Positions 5,711-34,900 of a DNA stretch of 64,000 bases are shown piece after piece. Below the pieces are notes generated by a model that did no database searches, was not told where the DNA came from, and saw only the letters and a list, made by a program, of their open reading frames with translations. The position numbers were made by a program, and so were the translations under genes. The stretch is taken from positions 1,219-65,218 of the forward strand of contig CAVKLJ010000003.1 in NCBI GenBank assembly GCA_963657245.1, given 5' to 3'. Each line of letters starts with the position of its first letter. The first letter of the stretch is position 1. Origin of the DNA: Lachnospiraceae bacterium. Its GTDB lineage: Bacteria > Bacillota_I > Bacilli_A > RFN20 > CAG-826.

Positions 5711-6418
5711 TTATAAATAATACTTATTTAAGACTTTGAGATCTTTTTCGTCTAATTCATAAACAAGTGGTTTACCTGTTGGGATTTCGACGGAAATGAT
5801 TTGTTCTGGTGTTAAATGTTCAAGCATCATAACAATAGAACGTAAGGAGTTACCGTGAGCAGCGATTAAGACTTTCTTACCGGCTTTGATTTCTGGAGCA
5901 ATCTTGGCATCGAAATATGGCTTAACACGGTTTGCAGTATCAATTAAGCACTCGGTTAATGGGCAATCTTCGATTGTCATTTCACCTTTGGCAATTAATT
6001 CTTTGTACTTCTCTTGGTTTCCTGGCCATCTTTCATCATCTTTTGTTAATGGAAGAGGTGGTACGTCAGCGCTTCTTCTCCAGATATGGACTTGTTCAGC
6101 ACCCCATTTTTCTGCAGATTCAGCTTTGTTTAATCCTTGAAGAGCGCCATAATGACGTTCATTTAATCTCCATGTGTAGAACTTTGGGATAGAGGTTTCA
6201 CCCATTTCTTCAAGAGCGTATTCCATTGTGTGGTTTGCTCTCTTTAAAACTGAGGAGAAAGCAAGATCGAAACTATAGCCTTTTTCTTTTAAAAGTTTTC
6301 CTGCTTCGTGAGCTTCTTTAACTCCTTGCTCACTAAGTTCAACGTCTGTCCAACCAGTGAAAAGGTTCTTTAAGTTCCACTCAGATTGGCCGTGTCTAAT
6401 TAATACTAATTTAATCAT
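5711..6418 (-). CDS. gpmA: 2,3-bisphosphoglycerate-dependent phosphoglycerate mutase
   Basis: Full-length dPGM. N-terminal LVLIRHGQSEWN catalytic-His motif, RHYG, and C-terminal AAHGNSLR. Confidence 0.95.
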   Translation of the reverse strand: MIKLVLIRHGQSEWNLKNLFTGWTDVELSEQGVKEAHEAGKLLKEKGYSFDLAFSSVLKRANHTMEYALEEMGETSIPKFYTWRLNERHYGALQGLNKAESAEKWGAEQVHIWRRSADVPPLPLTKDDERWPGNQEKYKELIAKGEMTIEDCPLTECLIDTANRVKPYFDAKIAPEIKAGKKVLIAAHGNSLRSIVMMLEHLTPEQIISVEIPTGKPLVYELDEKDLKVLNKYYL

Positions 6419-21346: not shown

Positions 21347-21366
21347 ATTTTTAAGGAGAAAAACCA

Positions 21367-21669
21367 ATGAACCAAATGCAACAAATGATCATGCAAGCTC
21401 AAAAAATGCAACGCCAACTTCAAAAAGCAATGGCTGAGCTTGAATCAAAAGAATTCGTCGTTGAAAAAGCAGGACTTGTCACAGTTACTTTAACTGGTGA
21501 TAAGAAAGTTAAATCAATCGTTATCGATAAAGACGCTTTAAATCCCGACGATGCTGATATGATCCAAGATACAATCGTCTCCGCTCTTAACGAAGCGCTC
21601 GAAAAAATCAGTGATGAAACAAATAGAATCAACGAAGAAATCACTGGACGTGGAACAGGATTGTTCTAA
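21367..21669 (+). CDS. ybaB: nucleoid-associated protein YbaB/EbfC
   Basis: 100-aa protein between dnaX and recR, with Q/M-rich N-terminus and conserved fold pattern. Confidence 0.9.
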   Translation: MNQMQQMIMQAQKMQRQLQKAMAELESKEFVVEKAGLVTVTLTGDKKVKSIVIDKDALNPDDADMIQDTIVSALNEALEKISDETNRINEEITGRGTGLF

Positions 21670-22265
21670 TGAAAGAATTAGCCTCATTACAAGCTTTAAT
21701 AGATTCTTTTAGCAAACTTCCTGGCGTCGGAGTCAAATCCGCAGAAAGAATGGCTTATGCCGTTTTGAATTTTAGCAATGAAGATCGTGATGAATTTGTA
21801 AAATCCATCAAAGACATCTCCAACAAAATTCATAAATGTCCTAAATGCGGAATGTACACCGAAAACCCATCTGAATGTGATATTTGCCTAGACCAAGAAA
21901 GAGATCATCACCTCATTTGCGTAGTCAGTGAAGTAAAAGACGTTTTCGCCATTGAGAAAATGAATTCCTTTAAAGGGGTTTATCACATTCTTGGCGGATC
22001 GATAAATCTCGCCAAAGGAATTGGCGCGGAAGAGTTAAGAATCGGCTCTCTTTTAAAAAGAGTCCCCGAAGAAGAAATTAATGAGGTCATCCTTGCTACA
22101 AACTCAACGATGGAAGGAGAAACAACAGCCCTTTTTATCGCTAAGTTACTAGAAGGAAAAGTTACAGTCACAAGATTAGGCTACGGCCTCCCTATGGGAC
22201 TCGCCCTAGACTATGCAGACCCTATGACCTTAAATAAGGCTTTTGAGGGCAGAAAGAAGATTTAG
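21669..22265 (+). CDS. recR: recombination protein RecR
   Basis: HhH (LPGVGVKSAERMA), C4 zinc finger CPKCG...CDIC, Toprim domain. Confidence 0.95.
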   Translation: MKELASLQALIDSFSKLPGVGVKSAERMAYAVLNFSNEDRDEFVKSIKDISNKIHKCPKCGMYTENPSECDICLDQERDHHLICVVSEVKDVFAIEKMNSFKGVYHILGGSINLAKGIGAEELRIGSLLKRVPEEEINEVILATNSTMEGETTALFIAKLLEGKVTVTRLGYGLPMGLALDYADPMTLNKAFEGRKKI

Positions 22266-22267
22266 TT

Positions 22268-22888
22268 ATGTTTATTACATTTGAAGGCGGAGAAGGTTCA
22301 GGTAAAACAACTTGCATAAAACATGTTGTCGAAACCCTCGAAAAAGAAGGAAAGACAGTCATTTTAACTAGAGAACCCGGCGGAACACCTATTTCCGAAG
22401 AAATAAGAAACGTCATTCTCGATAAAAAGAACACGGATATGGATCCTCGCACCGAAGCATTACTTTACGCCGCTTCGAGAAGACAACATATTGTTCAAAA
22501 AATCATTCCTTCGCTTAAAGAAGGCAAAATCGTCATAAGCGATCGTTTCCTTGACTCTTCTTTAGCCTATCAAGGTGGAGCAAGAGGACTTGGAATCGAA
22601 GGAATATACAATATAAATCAATACGCTACAGAAGGATTAGAACCTGATGTAACCTTCTTTTTTGATATTGAGCCAGAAGAAGGGTTAAATCGAATTGCCG
22701 CAAACGCCGGAAGAGAGGTAAACCGTCTTGATGTTGAGAAATTATCTTTCCATCATGCCGTAAGAAACGCTTTCTTAGAATTAGCAAAACGTAATCCAAA
22801 ACGTATTGTTGTTATCGACGCTTCAAAAGACAGAGAAAGCGTATATCAAGCGGTTATAACAGAAATCGAAAAGAGGTTAGCCAATTAA
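22268..22888 (+). CDS. tmk: thymidylate kinase
   Basis: P-loop FEGGEGSGKTT, DRF motif (SDRFLDSS). Confidence 0.95.
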   Translation: MFITFEGGEGSGKTTCIKHVVETLEKEGKTVILTREPGGTPISEEIRNVILDKKNTDMDPRTEALLYAASRRQHIVQKIIPSLKEGKIVISDRFLDSSLAYQGGARGLGIEGIYNINQYATEGLEPDVTFFFDIEPEEGLNRIAANAGREVNRLDVEKLSFHHAVRNAFLELAKRNPKRIVVIDASKDRESVYQAVITEIEKRLAN

Positions 22889-23889
22889 TGAAGTTTGAAG
22901 ACTATTTGCAAACATATCAGCCATTAGTTTATAGAACTTTTAGAAACGCCTTAGAAAGCGGAAAGATTGCTCACGCTTATCTTCTTTCCGGAGAAGGAGG
23001 CATTCCTCTTTTAGAGACCGCTAAATTCATTGCCAAGTCTCTTCTTTGCGATAATCCTTCCCCTCTTGCATGTAATTCCTGCCTCTCTTGCAAAAGAGTT
23101 GACCACGGAACATATGCAGACTTCATCATCTTAGATGGCAGAGAAGGCCAAATCAAAAAAGGCGATGTTCAAGAAATAGTCGGGGATTTTTCCAAGACCC
23201 CAATTGAGGCAAAAGGCATCATGATTTATATCATCAACCTCGTTGAGAATATGAATCTTCAAGCCATCAACTCTTTGCTTAAATTTCTTGAGGAGCCACC
23301 GGATAAAACCTATGCGATATTAACAACGGAAAACGAAACAAAAGTCTTACCAACAATCATTTCCCGTTGTGAGAAATTAAGAATGACCCTTGTTCCAAAG
23401 GAAACAATTAAAAACGAAGCAATAAGTCTAGGCGTAAAAGAGGAAGACGCAGAATTGCTCGTTAACTTCTATAACAATGCCGAAATCCTAAAAGAAAAAA
23501 GCCTAGATGATGGTTATCTTCTCCTAAAAGATCTTTGGTTAAAAACACTAGATACATTAGGAAACGATTTGTCTTTAGCTGTATTCACCTTTGAGAATCA
23601 AATAATACCAGCCTTAGCAAATTCGAAAAAAGCTTCGAACATGTTGAATGCATATTCATATCTAGATATGTTGGCTCTTGCCTTTAAAGATGCTATATCC
23701 AAAAAAGAAGGGCAAGCGATTTTCCTTAAAGGATATGACTCCTATATCGATAAAATTGCTTATCGTCTTCCACATTTAGAAACATCTTTAACCGAAATCC
23801 TAAAAATTCGTAGTATTCTTACTACTAACATCAACTCCTCATTGGCTTTGATGCATCTCATCTTGTTTATCACAGAGGAAAATATATGA
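22888..23889 (+). CDS. holB: DNA polymerase III subunit delta'
   Basis: HAYLLSG, Zn module C..C..C, SRC motif. Syntenic after tmk. Confidence 0.85.
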   Translation: MKFEDYLQTYQPLVYRTFRNALESGKIAHAYLLSGEGGIPLLETAKFIAKSLLCDNPSPLACNSCLSCKRVDHGTYADFIILDGREGQIKKGDVQEIVGDFSKTPIEAKGIMIYIINLVENMNLQAINSLLKFLEEPPDKTYAILTTENETKVLPTIISRCEKLRMTLVPKETIKNEAISLGVKEEDAELLVNFYNNAEILKEKSLDDGYLLLKDLWLKTLDTLGNDLSLAVFTFENQIIPALANSKKASNMLNAYSYLDMLALAFKDAISKKEGQAIFLKGYDSYIDKIAYRLPHLETSLTEILKIRSILTTNINSSLALMHLILFITEENI

Positions 23890-24911
23890 TCACAAATTTC
23901 ACTCACTTTGTCTCCGTCCGTTTCCCTAACGGTGAAAAATCCTACTACTTTGGAACAAACGATCCAGATTTAGAAGTAGGCACATATGTCATTGTCGATA
24001 CCGTTTCAGGTTTTGAAATGGGAATCGTCACGGCCGCTCCAATAAGCATGAAGCTTTATAATTCCAAATTAGAGCTTAAAGCCGTTATTCGTAAGGCCAA
24101 TAGTGAAGATTTAGAAGACTACGAAATGGCTAAGAAACAAGCTAGGGTTTCTCTTCAAATTGCTGATCGTGAAGCCAAGAAACTTAACCTTGGCATGACC
24201 TTTGTTGACGCTGGCTACACCCTTGATGGTTCAAAGATAACCATCACTTATACTGCCGATGGTCGCGTTGACTTCCGTGAATTATTAAGAGTATTGGCTG
24301 CTCAGCTTAAATGTAGAATCGAATTACATCAAATTGCCCCAAGAGATAAAGCCAAAGCCGTTGGTGGCTTAGGCATTTGTGGCCTTCCATTATGCTGTTC
24401 TACCTTCCTTAAATCGTTTGATGGCATCTCTATTTCGCGTGCTAAAAATCAGATGCTTACATTGAACATCCCTAAGCTTTCTGGCCAATGCGGAAGATTA
24501 AAATGCTGCCTTCTTTTTGAAGATGATATGTATACCGAAGCTAAGAAATCTTTTCCCCGCATCGGAGATAAAATTCATCTTCCTACAGGTGATTATACGG
24601 TAAGTTCATATAACATCATGTCTAGTTCAATCAAAGTCCAAAGTGAGGATGACGTGCAATTTCTTACCTTAGAGGAATATAACAAGATCTTGCATCCAAA
24701 CCTTGTAAAGCCTCAGCAAAAGAAAGATCAAAATAACAAGCAATCTTTCCAAAAGAAGGACAATCAACAACCTCAAAGAAAAGACAACCAACAGCAAAAG
24801 AGGGACAACCAACAAAATAACAAGCCTCAAAATAGAAACAACAATCAGCAAAGAAGAAATAATAACCGTCATCCAAATAACAAAAACAAAGGAAATCCTA
24901 ATAATGCTTAA
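23886..24911 (+). CDS. yaaT: PSP1-domain protein YaaT/RicT with Q/N/K-rich C-terminal tail
   Basis: PSP1 domain with Cys cluster (GICGLPLCCSTF...GQCGRLKCCL). Syntenic after holB (ATGA overlap). Confidence 0.85.
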   Translation: MITNFTHFVSVRFPNGEKSYYFGTNDPDLEVGTYVIVDTVSGFEMGIVTAAPISMKLYNSKLELKAVIRKANSEDLEDYEMAKKQARVSLQIADREAKKLNLGMTFVDAGYTLDGSKITITYTADGRVDFRELLRVLAAQLKCRIELHQIAPRDKAKAVGGLGICGLPLCCSTFLKSFDGISISRAKNQMLTLNIPKLSGQCGRLKCCLLFEDDMYTEAKKSFPRIGDKIHLPTGDYTVSSYNIMSSSIKVQSEDDVQFLTLEEYNKILHPNLVKPQQKKDQNNKQSFQKKDNQQPQRKDNQQQKRDNQQNNKPQNRNNNQQRRNNNRHPNNKNKGNPNNA

Positions 24912-25764
24912 ACGTGAGCTTAACTTTCAAGGAGACACTCCTTTACTTTATCTAATTGCCACGCCGATTGGCAATCTTGAAGAATTCACTCCTCGAGCAA
25001 TAAATATTCTCAAAGAAACGGATTATGTCGCCTGTGAAGATACACGTAACTCAGGTCTTTTGCTCAAGAGATTTGGTTTTGATTTGCCTCTAATTTCTTG
25101 TCACGAACATAACGAAGAAAAAGCTACAGAGAAAATTCTTTCCCTAATGAAAGAAGGAAAAAGGATCGCCTACATGTCTGATGCAGGCTATCCAATAATT
25201 TCTGATCCAGGAGAAAGGCTTGCAAGGAGAGTTCTCGAAGAAGGATACAAAGTCTCCGTAATAAATGGTCCTAATGCAGGATTATGCGCTTTGGTAGGTT
25301 CAGGAATTCCTAGCAAGCATTTCTACTTCTTTGGCTTCTTAGAAAGCAAACCATCGACAAGAAAGAAACAATTAGAATCCTTAAAAGATTTCCGCGATAC
25401 AATCATCTTCTATGAATCTCCACATAGAATTGAAGACACATTAAAAGATATGGCAGCAATCCTTGGAGAGGATAGACAAGCCTCTCTAGCAAGAGAGTTA
25501 ACAAAAACTCACGAAGAATATATACGTGGAACGTTAGGTGAATTAAAAGGCGTTGCTCCAGAAACAATCATTGGCGAAATTGTCATCGTTGTTGAAGGTG
25601 CAAAAACCATCGAAAAAGAACTTAGTGATGAAGAAATAGTCGGGCTTTTGCAGGGAAAATTGGAAAATTTGAAAAGCAAAGATGCAATAAAAGAAATTGC
25701 AAACGAGTATTCTATCCCTAAGAACAGAGTTTACGATATTTATTTAAAGAATTGGAAAAATTAA
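24904..25764 (+). CDS. rsmI: 16S rRNA (cytidine1402-2'-O)-methyltransferase
   Basis: TP-methylase fold motifs (LYLIATPIGNLEE, CEDTR, YESPHR). Syntenic after yaaT. Confidence 0.9.
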   Translation: MLKRELNFQGDTPLLYLIATPIGNLEEFTPRAINILKETDYVACEDTRNSGLLLKRFGFDLPLISCHEHNEEKATEKILSLMKEGKRIAYMSDAGYPIISDPGERLARRVLEEGYKVSVINGPNAGLCALVGSGIPSKHFYFFGFLESKPSTRKKQLESLKDFRDTIIFYESPHRIEDTLKDMAAILGEDRQASLARELTKTHEEYIRGTLGELKGVAPETIIGEIVIVVEGAKTIEKELSDEEIVGLLQGKLENLKSKDAIKEIANEYSIPKNRVYDIYLKNWKN

Positions 25765-25774
25765 TCGAATGAAT

Positions 25775-25805
25775 AATGGTCGTCATATTGGTGACCATTT
25801 TTCTT
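25775..25805 (+). terminator. intrinsic terminator closing the dnaX-rsmI block
   Basis: AATGGTC(25775-25781) ... GACCATT(25793-25799) followed by TTTTTC. Confidence 0.65.
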
Positions 25806-25910
25806 TACGGTTTTTCCTAATACATTCCCTGATATTTTTGTCTCTTAAACGAAAAATGATGTCACATGCTCTATAATTAAGAAAAGCAAAAGATTGGCGG
25901 TGAATGGCAT

Positions 25911-28900
25911 ATGTCTATTAAATTAGATGATCTTGAAACATTTAAAAAACATAGAAATAAAATATCCGAGTCCTTGACAAGCGAATTTGTTGGTAGGCAA
26001 AAAGAAATAAATGACATTTGCAACCTGTTATCACAAAAAGATTTCGTCGCCATAACTGGTTCTGCAGGAATAGGTAAAAGCAGGTTAGCGGTGGCTGCAA
26101 TAGAAAAATATGTTTCCGAAAACAAAAACATTACGGTATTATGTGTCAAAAGCTTTGGCGATTATATATCAGCAATCGAAGACTCCATAGAAGATTCTAA
26201 AAAATATCTTTTCTTTATCGATGACGCAAATGACTACAAAAAACTTGGAGAGTTGATTGAGTGTTTGAACTATTGTAAACAAGACAATGTGAAAGCCGTT
26301 TTTACTGTTAGAGATTACCTAAAAGATTGCATTGATGATGAATCGATCGTTTTTTATGAAGTTCGTCCTCTTAATAACAAAGAAATCAAAGAAGTTATAA
26401 AAGAAAACACTCCTATTAAAAGTGATAAATGGTTGAATAAGATCGCAGATATTTCAAAAGGTAATGTAAGGCTTGCTTCTATAATTGCTGACGTTGCATT
26501 AAAAGATGAAAAGGACTTTGCTAGTCTCTTTAATGTCCAAAACATAATGAATTCTTTCTATAAAGAACAAATCGCTAAAATGAATGGTTCTAGCAATTTG
26601 TTAATTACGGCTGGAATAATTTCTTTCTTTAGAACCACCTATCTAAATCAGTTATTTTATATCTCGCCAATCTTAAAACTTGCTGGCATCACCAAACAAG
26701 AATTTTTACATTATGTTGATACCTTGATATCGATGGAATTAGTTGATGAATGCGTTGGCGTTGTCAAAATATCAGATCAATGCTTTGCCGACTATTTGCT
26801 CAATTACGTTTTCATCGAGAAAAAATACATAAAAATCAAAGATTTGATCGTGAGCACGTACAAATACTACGAAAAAAGAATAGTCGAATCATTGAATGCA
26901 ATTTTAAGCACATGTTTAACCGATGACTCAGTGTCTTATCTTAAAAATGAACTTCTCAATTCTTATTCTTCGATAGAAGATATTGAGTTAAAAAACAAGA
27001 TTGAAGTTGCTTTCGCACCGCTTACACTTGACCACGCTGCTATGGAATTTAAAAACGGGGTCGAAAGCTATTCTGACAAAAAAGATATCGGATGGCTTCT
27101 TGAATTATTTAAAACTCTCGCAAAAACGGAATATCAATCGGTAGCAAATGAAGGAATCATGCGTCTTTTAAAAAAGACGGGCACAAATAAAATACACGTG
27201 TTCAAAGCGATTGATGATGCATATTCGCTTGATTATGATAGCGTTAGATCATCTTTCGTGTATCTCGATTCTTTTGTTTGTTATTTAATCGATCACCGTA
27301 TCAATGATGAGCCTTTATTGTTATTAGTTTCATCTTATCTTAAATATTCGTTTAGAGATTCCAGGTTTATCGGCAATAAAAGACTCGAATTTTGCGCGTT
27401 TAATGTAAGAGACGATATGAGCAAAATCATACCTTTCAGAAGAAAATGTTGGGATTACATCTTTGAATATGGAAAGGATAAGTCGCTTGATGCAATCATT
27501 GATTTTGCCAAGTATCATATCGCGGAAGATAATCAAAAAATAATGCAATCTGATCTCGAAGCAATAAACAAACATTTAGAAAATCTAGAAAATAAAGATC
27601 TGATCTATGCAGTCTTATGTGAAGAGTTCAAAGATGATGCCAAAAATTATAACTTTGAGAATATGCTTTATTCGAGCGCAAAACATAGCGACATTCTCAA
27701 AATTATTTTGGAAAAACCTACGAACGGCCAAAATTATGAAACATTTGAAAAGTCACACGAAGAAAACGTGAAAAGTTTTTATGTGGCAAACAAGTCAAAC
27801 ATCTTTGAAAAAATAAGAAATATCGATCTAATCTCCAATTATTATGCACAAGATATCAAAAATTTCCTTTCGATACTTATTCATTATCTAGATGAATTCT
27901 CTTCATCCATCTTAAGTGTCTTCGTAAGATACAAGGTTCATCCACTTTCTGTTGTAGAAAAAGCCTCATCTATTGTTGAATTGGAAACTTTATATAATGA
28001 AATAAAATCAATAGATGACTCAACTATGAGAGAAGAATATTTGTATGCTTTTTATTCATACATTAACAGCCAAAATAATGAAAATCTTTTTGGGTTTGAA
28101 ACTTGGATAAAATCAAAGCAAGATTTGGATACGAAGCCTATTTTTGGAAGAAATTTGCTTTCTTTAAGACAAATATCAGAAAATTCAGGTATTTCGTACG
28201 TTAAGTTAGTGAAAATCATCTTGAAAAAGAGACAATATAACGACGTTATTGCAAAGGAATATCTATCATGCATGTTTTTCAAAGAAAACGCATTCAAAGA
28301 ACTACTTAATTTAGATAGAGATTTAGCAATAGCCATATATGAATTTCTAATAGACCACGCAGAAAATGATTATAAGAATAAAGCGCTTAAAGAAATTATC
28401 AGCCTCAAGAGAAACTATATCAAAACCTTTGCCATAAGATATCTAGATGCCGAAACGATCGATGAAAACGGCTTAGATGAAATCATTTTCGATGACGATA
28501 ACTATAAGTTATTCTTTGACACATGTATAAATGCAGGCAAGGAAAAACTTCCTTACTTCTTCCCCTTAAACTTGCAACGGTTTGTCTCACATCATTTAGG
28601 AAACCAAAAAATGCTCGATTGGATTGAAGGCTATATAGATAAAAATCGAAATGATAACAAAGCCATGGAATCACTGTTTTCTGTCCTGGCTAGAATTGAT
28701 GATAAATACAAGAATGGCTTTATTATTAAATATTATGAGAGAGGCAAGGACGAAGAAGTTTTAAAATGCGCTTTATCCAACGTATGTGTATCTTATTCGC
28801 TGAATTCTGCTGAATCTTATTTGACAATTAAGATAAAAAACCTAGCGTCCTTAAAAGCGAGTTTAATCAAATGGGACAATCTAAATCTGGTTTCTTTCAT

Positions 28901-29603
28901 TAATGAGCTAATAGAGGGGTACAAAGAAGATATAAAAAACAGCAAAGTTAGTAAACTAATCGAATACGTTGATCCGAGTTTGCTAAACGAGCTTCAAGAA
29001 ATTGATGTGAAGACAGAAATCTCGCTCGTTGATGCCTTTAGACTATATTCTGAAGATGAGAATTTCCGCAGGCTTCTCTCTTCCGGATATGTCGCATATA
29101 AAGATGGATGCTTCGTGACGAAATCGAACGTTCCTTTGAAGTTTGTCGATGTTTTAAAAGATAAAAAGATATTAGGGATAAAAACAATTCAAGCAAACGG
29201 AAGCGAGAAGGAGAAATATGAGAAATATTTATCTTCTTTAAGAATAATCGAAAAGATATTTAATGACAAAAAAATAGCAACTTTAGATGAGTGCCTTGCT
29301 AAACTTTTTGATGAACGAGGGTGGAGTGTAGAGGACTTTGAAAGAAAAACTTTTTTAAGCAGAGACATTTTTAGCAAAATCAAGAATAACAAAAGAAATA
29401 ATCTACAAAAAATCACAATTATAAAGATATTAATAGGGCTGAAACTGTCAAAAACCGAAAGAGACTTCTTGTTAGAACTTAATAACACTCAGCTCTCGGA
29501 ATTTGATAAGAATGATGTTCAATATAGTTTTATTCTTGATTCCAAAATCGATATAGGGATGGCTGACGAATTGCTAAAAAAATTAGGAAAAGATGGTTTT
29601 TAG
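25911..29603 (+). CDS. STAND-like P-loop NTPase with long helical middle region and C-terminal HTH module (1230 aa)
   Basis: FVGRQKE lead-in, Walker A GSAGIGKS (26058-26081), Walker B LFFIDDA (26208-26228), GxP-like SKGNVRLAS (~26457-26480). About 900 aa of K/E/N/I/L-rich sequence follow. The last ~110 aa (29268-29600) are an XRE-like HTH module paralogous to ORF 11002..11391. Confidence 0.75.
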   Translation: MSIKLDDLETFKKHRNKISESLTSEFVGRQKEINDICNLLSQKDFVAITGSAGIGKSRLAVAAIEKYVSENKNITVLCVKSFGDYISAIEDSIEDSKKYLFFIDDANDYKKLGELIECLNYCKQDNVKAVFTVRDYLKDCIDDESIVFYEVRPLNNKEIKEVIKENTPIKSDKWLNKIADISKGNVRLASIIADVALKDEKDFASLFNVQNIMNSFYKEQIAKMNGSSNLLITAGIISFFRTTYLNQLFYISPILKLAGITKQEFLHYVDTLISMELVDECVGVVKISDQCFADYLLNYVFIEKKYIKIKDLIVSTYKYYEKRIVESLNAILSTCLTDDSVSYLKNELLNSYSSIEDIELKNKIEVAFAPLTLDHAAMEFKNGVESYSDKKDIGWLLELFKTLAKTEYQSVANEGIMRLLKKTGTNKIHVFKAIDDAYSLDYDSVRSSFVYLDSFVCYLIDHRINDEPLLLLVSSYLKYSFRDSRFIGNKRLEFCAFNVRDDMSKIIPFRRKCWDYIFEYGKDKSLDAIIDFAKYHIAEDNQKIMQSDLEAINKHLENLENKDLIYAVLCEEFKDDAKNYNFENMLYSSAKHSDILKIILEKPTNGQNYETFEKSHEENVKSFYVANKSNIFEKIRNIDLISNYYAQDIKNFLSILIHYLDEFSSSILSVFVRYKVHPLSVVEKASSIVELETLYNEIKSIDDSTMREEYLYAFYSYINSQNNENLFGFETWIKSKQDLDTKPIFGRNLLSLRQISENSGISYVKLVKIILKKRQYNDVIAKEYLSCMFFKENAFKELLNLDRDLAIAIYEFLIDHAENDYKNKALKEIISLKRNYIKTFAIRYLDAETIDENGLDEIIFDDDNYKLFFDTCINAGKEKLPYFFPLNLQRFVSHHLGNQKMLDWIEGYIDKNRNDNKAMESLFSVLARIDDKYKNGFIIKYYERGKDEEVLKCALSNVCVSYSLNSAESYLTIKIKNLASLKASLIKWDNLNLVSFINELIEGYKEDIKNSKVSKLIEYVDPSLLNELQEIDVKTEISLVDAFRLYSEDENFRRLLSSGYVAYKDGCFVTKSNVPLKFVDVLKDKKILGIKTIQANGSEKEKYEKYLSSLRIIEKIFNDKKIATLDECLAKLFDERGWSVEDFERKTFLSRDIFSKIKNNKRNNLQKITIIKILIGLKLSKTERDFLLELNNTQLSEFDKNDVQYSFILDSKIDIGMADELLKKLGKDGF

Positions 29604-29795
29604 AAGAAAAATAAAAAAATATATTTCTAAAAAATACAAAATGACCATATAGGAGGACGAATTTATGAAAAACTGTTCAAAAAGCCCATAAACTCTGTAT
29701 TTTGATAAAATACGGGCATTTTTAAATCCTCTTTAGAATTTGGATAAGAACGCACTTAGATACGTTCAAATCTAAATATTACAGGAGGAAATAAA

Positions 29796-30452
29796 ATGTC
29801 TAAGACAATAATTGATGACGGTTATTCGTCATACCTAGTTGAAGGTGCTACCTTTGTAGGCAAGTACCAGATACCATCCATCCCCAAACATGATGTGATT
29901 CTCATCCCAAAGGACATGATTCCGTTCGACAAGAGGAATGTCGTGAAAGAAAGAGATCTAGCGATAGATTTCTACATGCACGATGTGACCTTCAGACAAG
30001 TTCTCACATCGACAAGTAAATACCTTGACGAACTATCAAGGTTTGCAGCCGTGATCTCACCAGACTGTTCCTTATATAGGGACATGCCGCTATGCTTACA
30101 GATAACCAACACCTATATGAATAGAGCTGTCGGCTTCTATCTTCAAAAGAATGGCTTGTATGTAATTCCGAACGTCAGATGGGGAGATGAAAGAAGCTTT
30201 GAATTCTGCTTCCAAGGACTTCCTACAAACGACATCGTATGTGTCAGCACGCATGGCTGCATCAAAGGCAAGGAAAACAAGTATTATTTCAGGCTAGGCT
30301 TAGAAGTAATGCTTAACATCTTGAAACCTCAGGTCGTGCTAGTGCATGGCTCAATGCCGGATGAAGTGTTCTCTAATTTCCTGAGCGAAACGAAGTTCGT
30401 CCATTACGAGAGCTATATCTCCAAGATGAGAGGAGGTAAGCACAATGGGTAG
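29796..30452 (+). CDS. DUF4417-like protein (218 aa)
   Basis: Strong SD AGGAGG at 29783-29788. VISPDCSLYRDMPLCLQITNTYMNRAVGFYLQKNGLYVIPNVRWGDERSF...VCVSTHGC resembles the DUF4417 consensus as I recall it. Visibly higher G+C than its neighbours. Confidence 0.65.
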   Translation: MSKTIIDDGYSSYLVEGATFVGKYQIPSIPKHDVILIPKDMIPFDKRNVVKERDLAIDFYMHDVTFRQVLTSTSKYLDELSRFAAVISPDCSLYRDMPLCLQITNTYMNRAVGFYLQKNGLYVIPNVRWGDERSFEFCFQGLPTNDIVCVSTHGCIKGKENKYYFRLGLEVMLNILKPQVVLVHGSMPDEVFSNFLSETKFVHYESYISKMRGGKHNG

Positions 30453-30930
30453 CGGAATATCTGGAAGTTATAGCGGAACAAAACCGACCGAAGCCTCTCA
30501 ACAATACGCAAAAAGTTATGGCGTGACTCCCGAAATGCTTAAATTTGACATCGACAGAGGAGTTTACAATGGATCGTACGAGAAGAATCCAACCGCGAAA
30601 AATATATATGATGTTATAAACGGCGAATATATAATTTCCGCAAAACGCGACAGATATTTAACGTATGTTATTGATATGAATGACAACATAATCGTTGCTG
30701 AGAGAAATGGTAATGGTTTTGGAGGCAAAGCCACACCACATCCGACTTTAATTGGTGGAAAAAATCCAAGGGTTAAGTTCGCAGGAATATTGCATCTAGA
30801 GGGAGGAAAAATCACTTCATATGATCATATGAGCGGCCATTATAAGCCAAACATTAAATCTATGAGTGTAGCTAAAAAAGCATTCGATAAATTGCCAAAC
30901 TATGTGTTTAAGGGAGGAAAGAAAAAATGA
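30445..30930 (+). CDS. small basic protein with His-motif C-terminal half, toxin-module-like (161 aa)
   Basis: GGAGG 8 nt upstream. The start overlaps the previous stop by 8 nt. Cys-free and K-rich, with motifs TPHPTLIGG, HLEGG and DHMSGHYKP. No family assigned. Confidence 0.55.
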   Translation: MGSGISGSYSGTKPTEASQQYAKSYGVTPEMLKFDIDRGVYNGSYEKNPTAKNIYDVINGEYIISAKRDRYLTYVIDMNDNIIVAERNGNGFGGKATPHPTLIGGKNPRVKFAGILHLEGGKITSYDHMSGHYKPNIKSMSVAKKAFDKLPNYVFKGGKKK

Positions 30931-31379
30931 TAAAAATTGAAAATAAAATTTTAAAAAAAATGTTTAATTCTGATTATTGGAAAATGAGTAATGACGAGTT
31001 GGCGAAACTTGAGGAACAAGCTAATTCCATTTTGCAGAAAAACTCATGGAGTGATGTTTACGAAAACCTTGACTTCTTTTTGAGAAATGAATGTAAGACA
31101 GAGGACGATGTGATTAACTTTGTTCATTTTTTCGTGCATTATTACGGATTAAAATTTCAAATCCCTAGTCAATACGATCCATATGACCTAATAGGATATA
31201 TCCTATCGATGGTCAATTTGGAAAAAAGATGGGACGATTGTGGAGGCTTGTTTGATGACTTTGCTAATCAAGCCTTAAGAATTGATTTATATAATGACCC
31301 TTATTATCAATTTTGGAGAGATCCAAAAATTCTAGCCATTGCAGAAAAGTATAAGGAGAAAAAGAATGGACTACATTAG
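30927..31379 (+). CDS. small acidic Trp-rich protein, immunity/antitoxin-like (150 aa)
   Basis: ATGA stop/start overlap with the preceding basic ORF. GGGAGG SD. D/E- and W/Y/F-rich sequence that looks helical. No family assigned. Confidence 0.5.
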   Translation: MIKIENKILKKMFNSDYWKMSNDELAKLEEQANSILQKNSWSDVYENLDFFLRNECKTEDDVINFVHFFVHYYGLKFQIPSQYDPYDLIGYILSMVNLEKRWDDCGGLFDDFANQALRIDLYNDPYYQFWRDPKILAIAEKYKEKKNGLH

Positions 31380-31917
31380 ATTATCAAAGGAAATCTCATA
31401 TGCATTAAGACATGCACCATGGGAATACGAGCTTGAGCTCGATGAGAATGGTTTCGTTTCCATCAAGCAATTGCTCCATTCTCTGAACTCATCAAACGAG
31501 TATGACAGAGAAATAACAAAAGAAGATTTAGAATACATTATCTCTTGCTCAGATAAGAAGAGGCACGAAATAGTCGGAGATAAAATTAGAGCGCTTTACG
31601 GCCATTCTATTCCAACAAAAATCGAGAAAACTACTGCAATTCCACCGGATATTCTATATCACGGTACAGCAAAGAGATTCCTTGATTCCATAATGAAAGA
31701 TGGATTACTTCCAATGAAGAGACAATACGTTCATCTAAGCGTAGATACGGATATGGCAACACTTGTCGGAAAAAGGAGAGATCATAATCCAATAATTCTT
31801 GTGATTGATGCTAAAACTGCATCAAAGGACGGAATAAAATTCTATATTGGAAACGACAAAGTCTGGCTTTGCGATAAGATGCCTGCAAAATATATCAAGA
31901 TCCTAGAGAACGACTAA
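31366..31917 (+). CDS. kptA: RNA 2'-phosphotransferase KptA/Tpt1 family
   Basis: Start set at ATG 31366 behind AAGGAG (MDYIRLSKEISYALRH...). Collinear with E. coli KptA: LRH, SDKKR, GHS, LYHGT..RFL, RxYVHLS. All four catalytic R-H-R-R positions are present. Confidence 0.88.
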   Translation: MDYIRLSKEISYALRHAPWEYELELDENGFVSIKQLLHSLNSSNEYDREITKEDLEYIISCSDKKRHEIVGDKIRALYGHSIPTKIEKTTAIPPDILYHGTAKRFLDSIMKDGLLPMKRQYVHLSVDTDMATLVGKRRDHNPIILVIDAKTASKDGIKFYIGNDKVWLCDKMPAKYIKILEND

Positions 31918-31939: not shown

Positions 31940-34900
31940 TTAATCCAGTTCTTTTTTCTTTTTGTGAATATGATAAACGAATCTACCAATCGTATATGTG
32001 GCAATCGAAACGGTTGCAACACTTGCAAGAATACATCCTTCTTTTAAATAAGGAGTCTCATATTTCATAACGTAGGTTTGTTCACCTTCTGGAGCTAAGA
32101 AGCCAACAAATCCACCATCGAGTTTATAAGTCTTACAAGCCTTGGTAACACCATCTTTTGAAGTTGCAGTAACTTTCCATCCTGCATCATATCCTAAAGC
32201 AGTTACAACAAGCTTCTTTGAAGAGAAGTTAGATGAAAATGTTGCTTTATTTGTAGAGTAGGTCGCATTGGTTAATGCGTATTCCTCGCTTTGATATTTA
32301 TGATAGAAAGCTTCGATATCGCTACGATTTGCAACATACACTCCATATGTTCCAGGAATAGTCGCAACCGCATCATTAATTCCAGGATTGCTAAAATCAC
32401 TTGGTTTAGCGTTTAAACAGATATATTTAACTTTGCCTTTTGGATAGAAACCAAATACATCCGCGGAGGTTGATCCACCAACTCTCTTTGAAGAATATGT
32501 GCTTAACGTATTGTAATCATAAGATAAGAGTTGATCTTGATGAATTACGCCATTCTCATCGGTATAGTCTCCAATCAAATAAACACGAGTTTTATAAGAA
32601 GAAGATGAAGCAACGTTAAACATCAAAGAAATATAAGCGCCGCTCCAATCTGAATTGAAATAGGTATCTCCATTTGCTGGAGTAAAGACAACCGTTTCAT
32701 AATCAGGAACATAATCATTTCCATTTGTACGGATAGAATCGTAATGTTTCAAGAAATATGTAACGCCATATGTTTTCTTATCTGATTCAGAATAACCAAT
32801 GAAGTTTGTGTTGGTGTGTCTATAGATCTTTTTCTTCAAGGATATTTGTTTTAAAAGAGTAGACGCATCAGGGGCTGAAGAAACCACAAATCCTTCATCT
32901 TTTAAAGAATCAATATCTTCATCTTTAACTATCGCTCCAGAGGTATAAACCTCCTCGTTACGATTGATTTCATTGAAAACTCCACTGGCGGATAAATTCA
33001 CTTTATAGAAATCATCTTTATAGGAATTGCTTCCGTCTTTGTTTTCTTTGTAAATGTAATCAACGGCATGTCCAAAACTATTTTCGTTAACAAGTGAAGA
33101 AGAATAGAAACGTAAAGCACTCTTTTCATCTCCATAAACTAACTTGGAATCCCATGGGACGTTGTCGCTATTGAGATATTTATCGTTTTCTTCGTTAACG
33201 ATGCAGCTTTCCCAATCGCCATATCCTTCATTCTTGATGCCGTAATATTTGATATTGAAGGCAACGTCTGCCCCCACGCGTTTATTGCCATAATATGCCG
33301 ACCAAGATTTGTTGTAATAGGTCTGTCCATAAGCGGTCCCTTCATATTCGTGTCTATTCATATGCGAATATAAGGCGAGTTGGTTTACATCGTAATTAAA
33401 CAATGAGTGGAAATTGCTTGTTCCATTGAAATCAAACACTTCCTGAGCGTTATTCTCTGGCATACCTTCAATGAAAGCGCGGTAATAAGTATTTCCGTCA
33501 AAAGAGTTAATTTCTTTAAACGCGTTTGTCACGCAGTTTCTATAGGAAATTCCACCATTCCAATTGTTGTAATTCCAAGTGCCCATATAGGCAAAGGACG
33601 CATTGCCCCAAATAATGGTTTCAACCATGACTATGCCGCCAAGGATCTTAAGCAACAATTCTTTCTTTTTCACGAAAAGAATGATCAATCCAACAACGAA
33701 GTCCATTCCAAGTTGGAAATAAACAATCCATAGAGTCGAATATCCACTTACGACCGAAGGAACACTATATCTAGTAACCCAATATGTCGTTAATGATGTC
33801 TCAAATGTTTTATCTTTAAGAACGACAATACAAAGAATCCAAGTAAGAGTTGCTAAGAATAAAGAAAGGGCAGCCCCACTAATTGGAACCCATTTAGGTT
33901 CATCTTTTAATCTATCTAACTCCTGGCAAGCGTAATAGATGATGATTGGAACAAGAACGATATACCATCTTCCATATCCATCACCTGTAAAGGCATAGAA
34001 GAAATAATAAGCGAAATCAGTAAAGACCAAATAGGCGACCAATATAAAAGCAATTATGTGTGAAACTTTCTTTCTTCTGATTGAAGAAACAAAGGCAATC
34101 CAGAACATAACAACCATTGGGGTATAGCAGAAAAGGGACGCAACCCAAGCATCATATTGAATGCCACCACTAGAAGTCATACCACTTGCAACAGGTAAGG
34201 CTAAATAACCATATGTAGGATAGAAAAATCCAATTAACCCCTGTAATTCCCTGCCAGGATGTTGCCCAACTAATTCAAATAGACGAGCAAATAGAGTTTT
34301 TCCATCCAATGTTTTTATGGCAGTAAGTAAAGAGTTTAAGTAAGCCGCACCAATCGAAGTTGTTCTTCCTGTAAGAGATGATTCCCTTAACGAAGGGAAA
34401 AGACTCCAGGAGCATAACATGATTCCACATGCGAAAGACATAACCCCTAAAAGAATTACAAAAATATTATCTTTCCAATTGCGTTTCTTGATTGTCCAAA
34501 GGTATCTCCAAATGGCATATATAACACCGAAGATGCAAATAACCACAAGGAAGAAGAAAGACATAAGTCCAAGCAAAGCTAAGGAAATCGATAAGGTGAT
34601 TATTTTCTTTTCTTTGATAACTTTCTCGATGCCTAAAAGAACAAGCGGAACCATTGAACAAACGGAAACAACCGAAGGGAAACCAACCATAAAGTTCAAA
34701 TATCCATTGAAAGCAAAAGCAAGGCCACCAACTCTAGCTGATCCTTCGCTAACACCAAGATACTTAAGATAGGCTCTTGTTGCTAACGCTCCGACAACTC
34801 CTTTAAAGAAGGTTGCAATGACAAAAGTCTGAGGAATTATTGAGCGTGGAAAAATATAACAAATAATCAAGAATGGATCGAATAAGCCATAGTAGGAATT

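Follow-up and report, generated by a model that had tools for sequence, protein, structure and literature searches.

A STAND NTPase with a C-terminal XRE-like module as a candidate sensor-regulator of the adjacent toxin cassette

The gene at positions 25911-29603 of the window, by which we mean the whole 64,000-nucleotide stretch of Lachnospiraceae bacterium DNA analysed here, encodes a genuine STAND NTPase of the nSTAND3 class, and comparison with its relatives suggests that in this clade the killing domain of an anti-phage-type STAND ATPase has been replaced by a DNA-binding module. Most likely this module switches the neighbouring toxin/immunity/RNA-repair operon, and such a wiring of an Avs-type sensor, through a DNA-binding output, to an operon has not been described before. 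On balance, we incline to the view that the protein is a sensor-regulator fusion, which would control the toxin cassette by the stepwise activation proposed below.

Architecture and ancestry of the STAND protein

25867-25877, forward strand: extended -10 element, promoter-like, of the STAND gene (TGCTCTATAAT), downstream of the rsmI terminator hairpin
25911-29603, forward strand: STAND-HTH gene, ATG start, 1230 aa (open reading frame call and translation)
25980-26510, forward strand: NTPase core and lid, residues 24-200 (nSTAND3, invariant motif residues, AF2, Foldseek)
26592-26774, forward strand: winged-helix domain of the STAND module, residues about 228-288 (AF2 order H-H-E-H-H-H-E-E)
26808-28958, forward strand: helical array, residues about 300-1016, probable sensor (AF2 all-helical repeats)
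29118-29600, forward strand: C-terminal module, residues about 1070-1230 (hhalign to the standalone regulator of locus L083)
29277-29495, forward strand: putative XRE-like five-helix HTH, residues 1123-1195 (AF2 helices and sub-threshold Pfam matches)

The presence of a 1230-aa STAND NTPase, proposed in a preceding sequence-only reading of this DNA, is confirmed by a Pfam nSTAND3 score of 37.3 bits (gathering cut-off 27.2), by an AF2 model of residues 1-1200 (pLDDT 83.8) and by Foldseek, for which the best matches to the model are Avs4 (8dgf, 4e-8), EfAvs5 (9jap), Avs3, Apaf-1 and CED-4, with 9nc9 also among the best structural matches; the structural check suggested in that reading thus returned a STAND fold. 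In the model a P-loop sheet of five strands is followed by a helical lid, a winged helix and an all-helical array up to about residue 1016, and five helices lie at 1125-1190. The motifs quoted earlier are all present and conserved in 80 homologues, namely hhGRxxE as FVGRQKE (residues 26-32; R29 and E32 invariant or nearly so), Walker A GSAGIGKS (residues 50-57, 26058-26081; G50, G53, G55 and K56 likewise), Walker B LFFIDDA (residues 100-106, 26208-26228; D104 and D105 invariant) and the lid motif SKGNVRLAS (residues 182-190, 26454-26480; G184, N185, R187 and A189 conserved), while a sensor-1-like TVRD occupies residues 132-135 (26304-26315). The lid motif contains no proline and so cannot be called GxP-like; judged by its residues, it looks like the 'GD/NxR' sensor-2-type motif of AAA+ lids, the RFC-lid match being weak. 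Upstream of the gene, the terminator scan places the rsmI hairpin at 25775-25799, and the TG-n-TATAAT block is kept in all seven aligned loci.

The helical array, probably the sensor of the protein, is modelled mostly at pLDDT 85-95 with a single beta-hairpin at 480-498; its existence had been foreseen, its size being about 700 aa rather than 900. It is the fastest-evolving part of the protein and is most variable at residues 481-700, where mean pairwise identity is 42% as against 61% for both the NTPase and the HTH; for the winged-helix domain the figure among clade members is 63%. Twenty-four of the 80 homologues are full-length, with the same architecture at 42-66% identity, and the HTH-bearing clade comprises about 25 sequences, all from uncultured gut or rumen Firmicutes MAGs. 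Distant relatives (about 20% identity) are longer by some 160 residues at the N-terminus and stop about 40 aa past the array, without an HTH, whereas the HTH clade lacks the N-terminal extension and has about 210 extra C-terminal residues. These relatives, Avs-like and about 1240 aa long, are encoded by solitary genes in varied contexts, and since their extra domain occupies the position of the Avs effector, we infer that the HTH clade swapped it for a DNA-binding output. The earlier remark that there is no N-terminal effector consequently applies to the STAND-HTH protein and not to its family.

The C-terminal module, the spacer and the operon

An HTH had been assigned to the last 110 aa or so; a C-terminal XRE-like module is indeed predicted there, and the unit that has its own history covers residues about 1070-1230. 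The HMM search proposed as a check gave matches to Pfam HTH_19, HTH_26 and HTH_31, all sub-threshold (best E 3.8e-4), and PDB profile searches on the HTH gave no match. The HTH assignment draws on these Pfam matches together with a weak, in-register hhalign match and the five-helix AF2 geometry, sequence alone not settling it, and on the model the domain would be XRE-like; its recognition-helix stretch, D-x-F-S-K-I-K-N, is invariant. Elsewhere the module exists independently beside the same cassette, as a divergent standalone homologue of 244 aa upstream of the cassette in L083 and L086 (hhalign with the L083 protein: 96.5% probability, E 1e-9, 199 columns). The spacer of these two loci contains two 7-N3-7 palindromes, with a half-site unlike that of the STAND-HTH loci and without terminator features, and the recognition helix of the standalone protein also differs from that of the STAND-HTH protein.

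The spacer downstream of the STAND gene (29604-29795) holds the following elements.

29621-29637, no strand: palindrome 1 (ATATTTCTAAAAAATAC), candidate distal operator
29665-29691, forward strand: mini-ORF MKNCSKSP, eight codons, with its own AGGAGG at 29651-29656
29697-29713, no strand: palindrome 2 (GTATTTTGATAAAATAC), candidate proximal operator, a perfect palindrome with arms invariant in 11 loci
29728-29739, forward strand: anti-Shine-Dalgarno CCTC (29728-29731), then -10 hexamer TAGAAT (29734-29739)
29748-29788, forward strand: leader with inverted repeat GAACG-N10-CGTTC (29748-29767) and Shine-Dalgarno AGGAGG (29783-29788)

Both palindromes, 17-bp sites of the consensus ATATTTT-N3-AAAATAC, occur in 12 of 12 loci, where they lie 76-78 bp apart (76 bp here) and where the STAND proteins are 38-66% identical. 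No TATTTT-N3-AAAATA site was found upstream of the STAND gene, and the pair is absent at loci in which an unrelated XRE regulator accompanies the cassette. In the TAGAAT hexamer positions 2, 4 and 6 never vary, and conservation is 90% or more at positions 1 and 5; the operon promoter has neither a -35 nor a TG extension, and palindrome 2 is centred at about -41 relative to the start that this -10-only promoter predicts. A T-run (29717-29726) stands just past palindrome 2, and together the two, as RNA, could weakly terminate the STAND transcript. The arms of the leader repeat, conserved in 10 of 11 loci, read GGGC..GCCC in L013.

The operon consists of the following genes.

29796-30452, forward strand: DUF4417 protein, 218 aa, operon gene 1 (Pfam DUF4417, E 1.4e-53)
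30445-30930, forward strand: 161-aa toxin-domain protein (orf161), whose domain also ends RHS and other long polymorphic toxins
30927-31379, forward strand: probable immunity protein (orf150), 150 aa, its start overlapping the toxin stop
31339-31917, forward strand: KptA/Tpt1 RNA 2'-phosphotransferase, optional operon gene 4 (Pfam PTS_2-RNA, E 3.9e-42)

Conservation is higher in the operon proteins than in the STAND protein, with the DUF4417 protein 74-94% identical across the clade; the AF2 model of the latter (pLDDT 88.6) gives weak TIM-barrel/EAL and phage TGT-like matches in Foldseek, and would make it a beta/alpha-barrel-like enzyme. At the level of sequence orf161 is a toxin domain: it belongs to no Pfam family, and a profile search found 1098 relatives, of which many form the very C-terminal end of proteins 500-7535 aa long, with RHS repeats confirmed in two of them (P0208 and P0274) and invariant residues that include R87, H99 and S130-G131-H132. 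The orf150 family co-varies with the toxin, dividing into the same two subgroups, and follows orphan toxin fragments in other loci. KptA, present in 6 of 10 clade loci, reaches E 8.2e-56 and 188 bits at best against NCBIfam RNA 2'-phosphotransferase models, below their cut-offs of 231-279 bits, and in L023 a KptA of 60% identity follows an RHS toxin with the orf161 domain. The operon is a toxin/immunity cassette and not a metabolic one, a point missed in the sequence-only reading.

In each of the 11 loci that extend far enough, the STAND gene is followed by the DUF4417, toxin and immunity genes, the flanks being otherwise unrelated between loci. The unit forms a low-GC island (STAND gene about 0.32, flanks 0.37-0.40) with a patchy distribution across families, and no PADLOC model, those for Avs included, matches the system. 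Of 36 other loci with the cassette, 10 carry an XRE HTH as upstream neighbour and 7 an ImmA/IrrE protease, so that signal-controlled transcriptional regulation of the cassette is habitual.

A proposed switch and its alternatives

We propose that an Avs-type STAND NTPase lost the N-terminal domain of its relatives and gained instead, at its C-terminus, the dedicated XRE-like DNA-binding regulator of a mobile toxin cassette. The protein would be produced constitutively, under its own extended -10 promoter, and would rest as an ADP-bound monomer, until a trigger, most likely a protein of a phage or other invader, was bound by the variable helical array. Nucleotide exchange and oligomerisation would follow, as in other STAND proteins, gathering the C-terminal HTH modules and so promoting occupancy of both palindromes. 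A proximal site at about -41, a conserved -10 and the lack of a -35 would constitute the geometry of an activator-dependent promoter, from which the DUF4417 protein, the RHS-tip-type toxin, its cognate immunity protein and KptA would then be expressed. Read-through from the STAND transcript would be curbed by the weak terminator at palindrome 2, and the anti-Shine-Dalgarno, carried by read-through RNA only, could mask the ribosome-binding site of the operon. Once induced, the toxin, probably one that acts on RNA in a way that KptA can undo, would arrest the cell in what may be a defence response, the immunity protein and KptA setting a threshold or permitting recovery; since toxin and immunity genes are co-transcribed, killing by induction alone is not obvious. 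It also counts against this mechanism that the anti-Shine-Dalgarno helix needs transcripts whose start lies upstream of the proposed -10, and that 76 bp is a non-integral number of helical turns.

The earlier suggestion of a regulatory link between the protein and the adjacent operon is strongly supported by the invariant synteny, the conserved paired palindromes and the standalone C-terminal homologue beside the same operon; as to the sign of the control, activation is favoured over de-repression. With the opposite sign, a possible if somewhat doubtful arrangement, resting HTH modules on both palindromes would repress the toxin operon, the proximal site overlapping the -35 region and perhaps looping to the distal one, until STAND activation or sequestration into oligomers stripped the HTH from the DNA and de-repressed the cassette. 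The overlap of operator and promoter speaks for such repression, and so does the fact that elsewhere the cassette is paired with repressor-type XRE proteins and ImmA/IrrE proteases, a textbook switch by de-repression; that these analogous regulators act by de-repression also counts against activation. At L015, moreover, a natural in-frame deletion has removed the sensor and left an intact mini-protein with the HTH next to an intact cassette, which would be expected if silencing of the toxin needs DNA binding, and this deletion is no less compatible with a repressor than with an activator. Repression is, however, less easily reconciled with a promoter that, for want of a -35 or TG extension, should be weak unaided, and with a resting monomeric STAND protein, which would be a poor palindrome binder; STAND activation, furthermore, normally creates assemblies (MalT, Apaf-1, Avs) and does not dissolve them.

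Alternatively, though we think it unlikely, the spacer elements may act as RNA, palindrome 2 and the T-run serving as attenuator or terminator and a long hairpin hiding the ribosome-binding site, with post-transcriptional control exerted, for example, via the mini-ORF or a cassette-encoded factor, and with the C-terminal module doing other work, for instance by attaching to a protein partner or to the DNA of an invader. In keeping with this, none of 200 shuffles folds as well as the spacer (z = -3.4), the RNAalifold consensus pairs CCUC with the Shine-Dalgarno and shows three compensatory changes in its middle helix, and the arms of the leader repeat change from GAACG..CGTTC to GAATG..CATTC in L026; the mini-ORF, present with its strong ribosome-binding site in 6 of 11 loci, stops 5 nt short of the hairpin. 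Because the arms of palindrome 2 never vary, covariation cannot separate RNA pairing from protein binding, and this palindrome could be only a terminator. Yet palindrome 1 shares the half-sites and has no T-run or RNA role in the consensus fold, sequence and not merely pairing is kept in both palindromes, and the locus of the standalone homologue has paired palindromes of another sequence without terminator features; Rfam gave no match for spacer or leader, and operators and RNA elements can in any case coexist.

We regard it as very improbable that the protein is a self-contained Avs-like defence protein, with the HTH as effector or phage-DNA sensor and the cassette as an independent neighbour. 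Passages of PMC7159879 list HTH domains among the 'effector-module' domains of conflict-system NTPases, and the relatives with an N-terminal domain act as single genes, but the cassette synteny amid variable flanks, the conserved spacer with its paired palindromes and the standalone module beside the same cassette all argue otherwise. Least credible is a MalT/LAL-type regulator, in which the array would sense a small metabolite and a catabolic or housekeeping operon would be activated, for despite MalT's domain order and a Foldseek match to 8bob_C (1.6e-4) kinship with MalT/LAL fails on the absence of a GerE/LuxR domain, a sub-threshold AAA_16, a rank of 30 for MalT behind Avs4, Avs5, Apaf-1 and CED-4, and a Pfam family and nearest structures that are those of anti-phage Avs proteins. 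The island-like, patchy occurrence of the unit also speaks against such a regulator, which is largely refuted by an operon of polymorphic-toxin domain, immunity protein, phage-associated DUF and KptA without metabolic enzymes.

Relation to known systems

The Avs proteins, especially Avs5 (SIR2-STAND) and Avs4, resemble the STAND-HTH protein in nSTAND3, the Pfam NTPase family reported for Avs5, in supplying its best structural matches (8dgf, 9jap, 9nc9), in a long, fastest-evolving C-terminal helical-repeat region, in their island-like, patchy distribution and in the form of its distant relatives, single genes of some 1240 aa that encode an additional N-terminal domain. In contrast to Avs, the protein described here has no N-terminal effector, and its output consists of a C-terminal DNA-binding module and a separate operon of three to four genes. 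The MalT/LAL activators, AfsR and GutR being other STAND regulators, share the order of NTPase, helical sensor and C-terminal HTH and, on our proposal, the passage from ligand and ATP through oligomerisation to cooperative binding of repeated sites at a promoter without a -35; they differ in their LuxR/GerE domain, here replaced by an XRE-like five-helix HTH, in the NTPase, which here belongs to nSTAND3 outside the MalT clade, and in the target, here a toxin/immunity cassette on a mobile island and no regulon. Small XRE regulators and XRE plus ImmA/IrrE (Peptidase_M78) switches occupy the same position beside the DUF4417-toxin-immunity cassette in other genomes and are likewise signal-controlled transcription switches, but they are small, usually divergent and act by repressor cleavage, whereas here the DNA-binding module is joined to an NTPase sensor of 1000 aa, and the gene runs in the same direction as the operon.

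A computational precedent for HTHs in a STAND-type output position is found in passages on 'highly regulated NTP-dependent conflict systems' (Kaur et al. 2020, PMC7159879), and the nSTAND families in Pfam bear names used for that class; those passages mention HTHs generically, and the STAND-HTH architecture, operon and operators are not described in them. The RHS and T7SS polymorphic toxin cassettes, finally, share with ours the orf161 domain, which forms the C-terminal tip of RHS and other long toxins, an immunity gene following the toxin domain (DUF6960 or the orf150 family) and the occurrence of orphan fragments. Unlike them, orf161 is a standalone protein of 161 aa with a conserved extra N-terminal peptide, MGSGxSxxYxGT, and it has no trafficking domain; since it always follows DUF4417 and is under a dedicated regulator, it probably acts inside the producing cell.

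The STAND protein and its island

The gene for the STAND-HTH protein, predicted to consist of an NTPase, a helical array and a C-terminal XRE-like module, is followed on the same strand by four genes whose stops and starts overlap.

25911-29603, plus strand: STAND-HTH gene, ATG start, 1230 codons
29796-30452, plus strand: DUF4417 gene (Pfam E 1e-53)
30445-30930, plus strand: 161-aa ORF (orf161)
30927-31379, plus strand: 150-aa ORF (orf150)
31339-31917, plus strand: KptA/Tpt1 gene

Upstream of the STAND gene (19580-25764) lie the housekeeping genes dnaX, ybaB, recR, tmk, holB, a PSP1-domain gene and rsmI, while downstream of the island (31940-36320) a convergent gene for a 1099-aa YfhO-family membrane protein precedes a pseudouridine synthase gene. 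No integrase or repeat marking insertion of the island was seen in the window flanks; the GC content of the STAND gene is about 0.32, as against 0.37-0.40 in the surroundings. Low GC and the order of the genes are suggestive of a Firmicutes genome. Species-representative genomes yielded 12 STAND-HTH loci, in MAGs labelled Lachnospiraceae, Oscillospiraceae, Erysipelotrichaceae, Anaeroplasmataceae and others, and the flanks of the window are shared by none of the other loci. The order STAND gene, DUF4417, 161-aa gene, 150-aa gene is kept in all loci long enough, with KptA following this DUF4417-orf161-orf150 triad in 6 of 10. No protein of the island is better conserved than DUF4417, at 74-94% identity across loci as against 42-65% for the STAND protein.

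The sequence-only reading had described a STAND-like NTPase on the basis of FVGRQKE (residues 26-32), GSAGIGKS (50-57) and LFFIDDA (100-106), a description upheld by motif conservation, Pfam, structure prediction and fold comparison alike. In alignments of 30 and of 80 homologues, R29, G50, G53, G55, K56, D104, D105 and R134, the last within TVRD (132-135), are invariant or at least 90% conserved. The same holds for G184, N185, R187 and A189 of SKGNVRLAS (182-190), which had been taken for a GxP-like motif and is better described as an arginine-bearing lid motif. The protein thus carries the signature of the STAND superfamily, namely Walker A and B, the upstream hhGRxxE and, following strand 4, the sensor-1 arginine of a TxR motif. 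Residues 31-138 belong to nSTAND3 (PF20720; 37.3 bits against a Pfam gathering score of 27.2), a precomputed match common to most homologues, with weaker Pfam matches to nSTAND1, nSTAND5, nSTAND6, AAA_16 and NB-ARC.

The structure prediction and Foldseek search proposed by the same reading gave a confidently predicted STAND fold. AlphaFold2, given the 80-sequence alignment, modelled residues 1-1200 with a mean pLDDT of 83.8 and a pTM of 0.63; in the model a helical lid and then a winged-helix domain (~228-288) come after a five-stranded P-loop sheet, in the NTPase, lid, winged-helix order of the superfamily. Beyond these an all-helical array extends to about residue 1016, so that the helical repeat region, put earlier at ~900 aa, measures ~700 residues; a small hairpin subdomain, a low-confidence linker and five helices (1125-1190) complete the model. 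The most variable segment lies within the array, at residues 481-700, where mean pairwise identity is 42%, as against 61% in the NTPase and HTH. The Foldseek ranking against the PDB agrees with the STAND assignment: the top matches are Avs4 (8dgf, E 4e-8), EfAvs5 (9jap), SAMD9, Avs3, Apaf-1, CED-4 and plant NLRs, with a probability of 1.00 for Avs4, Avs5, Avs3, Apaf-1, CED-4 and the plant NLRs.

The putative toxin cassette and KptA

A profile of orf161 retrieved 1098 relatives among 1.84 billion representatives, in many of which the domain makes up the C-terminal ~140 residues of a protein 500-7535 aa long (for example 1554-1689 of 1696, 2000-2140 of 2147 and 7388-7528 of 7535). RHS repeats and DUF6531 occur in two homologous proteins (P0208 and P0274); one long toxin-domain protein has a sub-threshold VgrG-like match to the baseplate-hub family Phage_GPD (23.4 bits against a cut-off of 30.1), and another, of 1303 aa in metagenome locus L101, begins with a signal-peptide-like N-terminus. 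Polymorphic toxins typically show such a domain at the very end of long proteins that differ in their trafficking regions, next to a small immunity gene and with orphan toxin-immunity fragments elsewhere, and all of this is found for orf161. The toxin is followed by a DUF6960 gene in three loci (L023, L024, L025), and truncated orphan toxin copies are followed by an orf150-family gene in L062, L072, L073, L076 and L092. The immunity position after the toxin is filled by the orf150 family or by DUF6960, between which no similarity is detectable. Across loci, orf161 sequences form two subgroups, and orf150 sequences divide in the same way. Recurrence at RHS ends, trailing immunity genes and co-splitting together identify orf161, by comparative criteria, as a polymorphic-toxin-type domain without a Pfam family, and orf150 as its probable immunity protein. 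Scans of PADLOC, NCBIfam and PHROGs were uninformative for the STAND protein, orf161 and orf150, and sequence and profile searches of the PDB gave no significant match for orf161, orf150, the whole STAND protein or its C-terminal 250 aa. Standalone forms of orf161 possess a conserved N-terminal peptide, MGSGxSxxYxGT, which the long toxins lack. The invariant residues of the domain include R87, H99 and S130-G131-H132; an invariant set of His, His, Arg and Lys would be in keeping with an RNA-directed enzyme that needs no metal.

The triad is far commoner than the STAND gene, which accompanies it in a single one (L026) of 80 metagenome toxin loci (L026-L105). Among 36 distinct upstream neighbours of the triad in these loci, ten have an XRE HTH, seven an ImmA/IrrE (Peptidase_M78) domain, two ABC-3C CTD11, two are Phd/YefM-like and one is a ThsA-type Macro protein. 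Three unrelated architectures bring KptA and the toxin domain together: the STAND cassette, an arrangement of AAA_21, KptA and triad, and a T7SS-type RHS locus in which a KptA 60% identical to that of the window sits after the immunity gene. A KptA also lies within 7 kb in 35 of the 80 metagenome loci.

KptA genes beside the toxin domain:
window, 31339-31917
L019, 6551-7117
L023, 8652-9023

In polymorphic-toxin loci the genes after the toxin protect the producer. The natural substrate of bacterial KptA has, to our knowledge, long been unknown. The enzyme removes 2'-phosphates from RNA using NAD+ (PMC9503650). Given this chemistry and the position of KptA in the toxin loci, we infer that the toxin may create a KptA-reversible RNA lesion. 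The three gene arrangements suggest that KptA acts as an enzymatic immunity or repair factor for orf161-type toxins. If true, KptA would gain a physiological role, and its recurrent link with the toxin could make the purpose of the bacterial enzyme directly testable.

DUF4417 precedes the standalone toxin almost always. Its AlphaFold2 model (pLDDT 88.6) shows beta/alpha alternation of a beta/alpha-barrel-like kind, and Foldseek against the PDB returned weak matches of TIM-barrel type (EAL, PdxJ, TIM; best E 4e-3). Among viral models, once members of the family are set aside, phage queuine tRNA-ribosyltransferase-like proteins match best (E 1.6e-3, TM 0.5), a weak modelled resemblance to TGT/DpdA-like enzymes that may serve as a lead only. 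A receiver-like ('cREC') phosphoesterase, suspected from the link with KptA, was rejected on the model and the Foldseek result. The ParB-like DpdB is paired with the TGT-like DpdA. As a separate observation, phage DUF4417 is often fused to ParB-like domains (10.1101/2025.10.10.680097), fusions which recall the DpdB-DpdA pairing.

The C-terminal module and its proposed control of the cassette

Sequence by itself does no more than suggest an XRE-like HTH in the C-terminal module. The HMM search that had been proposed for it gave Cro/C1 (XRE) clan signals exclusively, every one of them sub-threshold: HTH_26 and HTH_19 match the STAND C-terminus with E 0.007-0.04 (values of 0.007 for HTH_26 and 0.009 for HTH_19 among them), below their Pfam gathering scores, and in ten relatives the same segment matches HTH_19 (three), HTH_26 (three) or HTH_31 (one), again below gathering (best HTH_19 E 3.8e-4). 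Against a small set of classical XRE domains, hhalign placed residues 1124-1182 in register with a weak match (E 0.073); PDB profile searches with the 81-aa HTH segment found no match. The model contains the five-helix bundle of XRE domains, with helices 2-3 as the HTH (1125-1136, 1140-1147, 1151-1158, 1167-1176 and 1181-1190; pLDDT 74-86) and with the lengths and spacing of a Cro/C1-type domain, and the stretch D-x-F-S-K-I-K-N, at the position of the recognition helix, is invariant across the clade. The earlier preference for an XRE-like over a LuxR HTH is in keeping with the absence of a GerE match.

The strongest evidence, at the sequence level, for the regulator nature of the module is a free-standing homologue at the triad.

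L083, 5396-6127, minus strand: standalone 244-aa homologue of the STAND C-terminal module, divergent from the triad and upstream of it; a KptA gene lies behind

This protein, found in L083 and L086, is homologous to STAND residues ~1070-1230 (hhalign probability 96.5%, E 1e-9, 199 columns). Its position next to the triad argues that the STAND C-terminal module belongs to the triad's own regulator family, fused to a sensor, and that the donor of the HTH output would still be present as a free-standing regulator of the same cassette. The recognition helix of the L083 protein differs from that of the STAND module. A small XRE regulator in L017, considered as another relative of the STAND C-terminus, proved not to be homologous, and the L017 spacer is devoid of the palindromes described below.

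The 192-bp spacer between the STAND gene and DUF4417 (29604-29795) is conserved at 71% mean identity across loci whose STAND proteins are 42-66% identical.

29621-29637: palindrome 1, candidate operator, ATATTTCTAAAAAATAC, half-sites as in palindrome 2
29697-29713: palindrome 2, candidate operator, GTATTTTGATAAAATAC, half-sites as in palindrome 1
29734-29739: -10 hexamer TAGAAT, downstream of palindrome 2

All 12 loci contain both palindromes at a centre-to-centre distance of 76-78 bp; triad loci with unrelated regulators lack them. The STAND gene, for which a conserved extended -10 of its own is present, has no such palindrome upstream. The L083 spacer (6128-6337) contains two 7-N3-7 palindromes of its own, TTATCTT-GCC-AAGATAT and ATATCTT-CTT-AAGATAT, 89 bp apart and with the half-site ATATCTT. 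Three positions of the TAGAAT hexamer (2, 4 and 6) never vary, and two more (1 and 5) are conserved to at least 90%; the predicted promoter has neither a -35 element nor a TG extension. With a transcription start ~7 nt downstream of the hexamer, palindrome 2 would be centred near -41, where activators that replace a -35 contact usually bind.

We lean, on balance, towards a STAND sensor-regulator that activates the toxin cassette, a mechanism which, like every functional statement made here on the STAND-HTH system, is an extrapolation from sequence. The sensor would be expressed constitutively and its variable helical array would recognise an invader component; recognition would lead to ATP-dependent oligomerisation, the clustered HTH modules would bind the two candidate operators, the -10-only promoter would be activated, and DUF4417, toxin, immunity protein and KptA would be expressed. 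A weakness common to all defence readings is that the toxin and immunity genes are co-transcribed, so that induction need not by itself bring about arrest. The fuller proposition, that an invader-sensing STAND protein induces a silent toxin cassette through a captured regulator and that the RNA lesion made by the toxin is reversed by KptA/Tpt1, is in our view doubtful as a conjunction.

The same fusion could also act with the opposite sign, the HTH repressing the cassette and sensing relieving the repression, which we regard as a rather unlikely but serious alternative to activation. It draws support from the XRE/ImmA-type proteins that partner the triad elsewhere and from a natural deletion in locus L015, in which the first ~118 STAND residues are joined in frame to the HTH module beside an intact cassette.

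L015, 7929-8708: mini-protein ORF, natural in-frame deletion, ORF and adjoining cassette intact

Palindrome 2 with its T-run could, as RNA, form a weak terminator, and the conserved CCTC at 29728-29731 pairs in the RNAalifold consensus with the operon's AGGAGG (29783-29788), the middle helix showing three compensatory changes. This anti-SD lies upstream of the proposed start and would therefore silence read-through RNA only, an arrangement that is tidy but unproven; Rfam contains no family matching the spacer region. Control of the operon by RNA alone fits the data less well than does the activating STAND regulator and is improbable. A self-contained Avs with an unrelated cassette as its neighbour likewise accounts less well for the data and seems very improbable.

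Further features of the spacer may be recorded. An eight-codon mini-ORF, MKNCSKSP (29665-29691), has an AGGAGG to itself and stops 5 nt short of palindrome 2; it occurs in 6 of 11 loci with a varying peptide and could be a leader peptide or nothing. Just past the predicted start an inverted repeat, GAACG-N10-CGTTC (29748-29767), is kept in most loci; L026 has GAATG..CATTC in its place and L013 has GGGC..GCCC. The repeat may serve as a 5' stem-loop or as a second operator. Upstream of DUF4417 in L019 there is likewise a GAAC/GTTC repeat. In L009 the first ~52 bp of the spacer, palindrome 1 included, are repeated after KptA at the contig end (14013-14065), which, judged from the DNA, may reflect a cassette with flanking direct repeats or a second copy next to the first.

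Relation to known STAND systems

The 80 homologues of the STAND protein, all of ~1210-1310 aa, fall into two architectural types. The ~55 distant relatives (~20% identity), from Clostridium, the Bacillus cereus group, Francisella, a Bathymodiolus symbiont, Ignavibacteria and others, have ~215 residues ahead of the Walker A lysine and end ~40 residues past the array. In the STAND-HTH protein and its 24 closer relatives (42-66% identity) the lysine is reached after 53-61 residues, and the C-terminus is longer by ~210 residues. The N-terminal extension of the distant relatives (~160-190 aa in P0026-P0080; residues 1-190 in P0030, P0063 and P0067, for example) has G40, K47, G51, P53, D54, K79, D83, C87, D158 and Q161 invariant, with a conserved pattern G-x-P-D...K...D...C, and neither Pfam nor PDB sequence and profile searches gave a significant match to it. 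A PD-(D/E)xK nuclease, brought to mind by GTPD...K...D, was discarded: the ExK position is not conserved and profiles lend no support. The extension may be a new effector domain for lone Avs-like genes, among them those of Bacillus, Francisella and Clostridium. Two genes of this type in complete genomes each stand alone in unrelated neighbourhoods, as expected of single-gene Avs-like systems. From the two architectures and these lone genes, the HTH clade looks, in its sequences, like an Avs-type sensor whose N-terminal output has been exchanged for a C-terminal one.

The Avs proteins are indeed the closest resemblance. nSTAND3 is the NTPase family reported in Avs5 (10.1101/2025.07.08.663546). 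None of the Avs1-5 models in PADLOC-DB matched, the only signal being a weak P-loop match to mad8 (E 7e-4). Avs1-5 carry a fused N-terminal effector (nuclease, SIR2, protease or others), whereas in the STAND-HTH protein Walker A begins at residue 50 with no domain before it, in agreement with the initial remark that an effector is missing. HTH domains are noted generically as outputs of conflict-system NTPases (PMC7159879); in the literature searched (DUF4417, PF14386, nSTAND3, KptA-toxin and STAND-HTH topics) we found no description of the STAND-HTH architecture, its operators or its cassette.

With MalT the protein shares its logic, but the kinship to MalT/LAL regulators proposed from domain order fails on both HTH type and NTPase clade. 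MalT/LAL proteins end in a LuxR/GerE HTH, in place of which the STAND-HTH protein gives sub-threshold XRE signals alone; its AAA_16 score of 24.2 bits falls short of the 32.6-bit cut-off, and MalT (8bob_C) ranks 30th in the Foldseek search of the PDB. A MalT-like metabolic regulator, fitting the data less well than the activating sensor, is thus hardly credible.

Known anti-phage STAND proteins kill via an enzyme fused to the sensor, and the STAND transcription factors MalT and AfsR run metabolism or development. The HTH clade would join anti-phage STAND sensing and STAND transcription control, such that within one family the domain in the effector position appears swapped for a predicted DNA-binding output, a clean natural example of immune-sensor rewiring. 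The cassette adds a putative toxin domain family absent from Pfam, and the whole forms a compact, testable sensor-to-promoter module of one protein, two 17-bp sites and one promoter. If true, it would represent a bacterial counterpart of receptor-to-gene-induction immunity, that is, a transcription-coupled pattern-recognition receptor.
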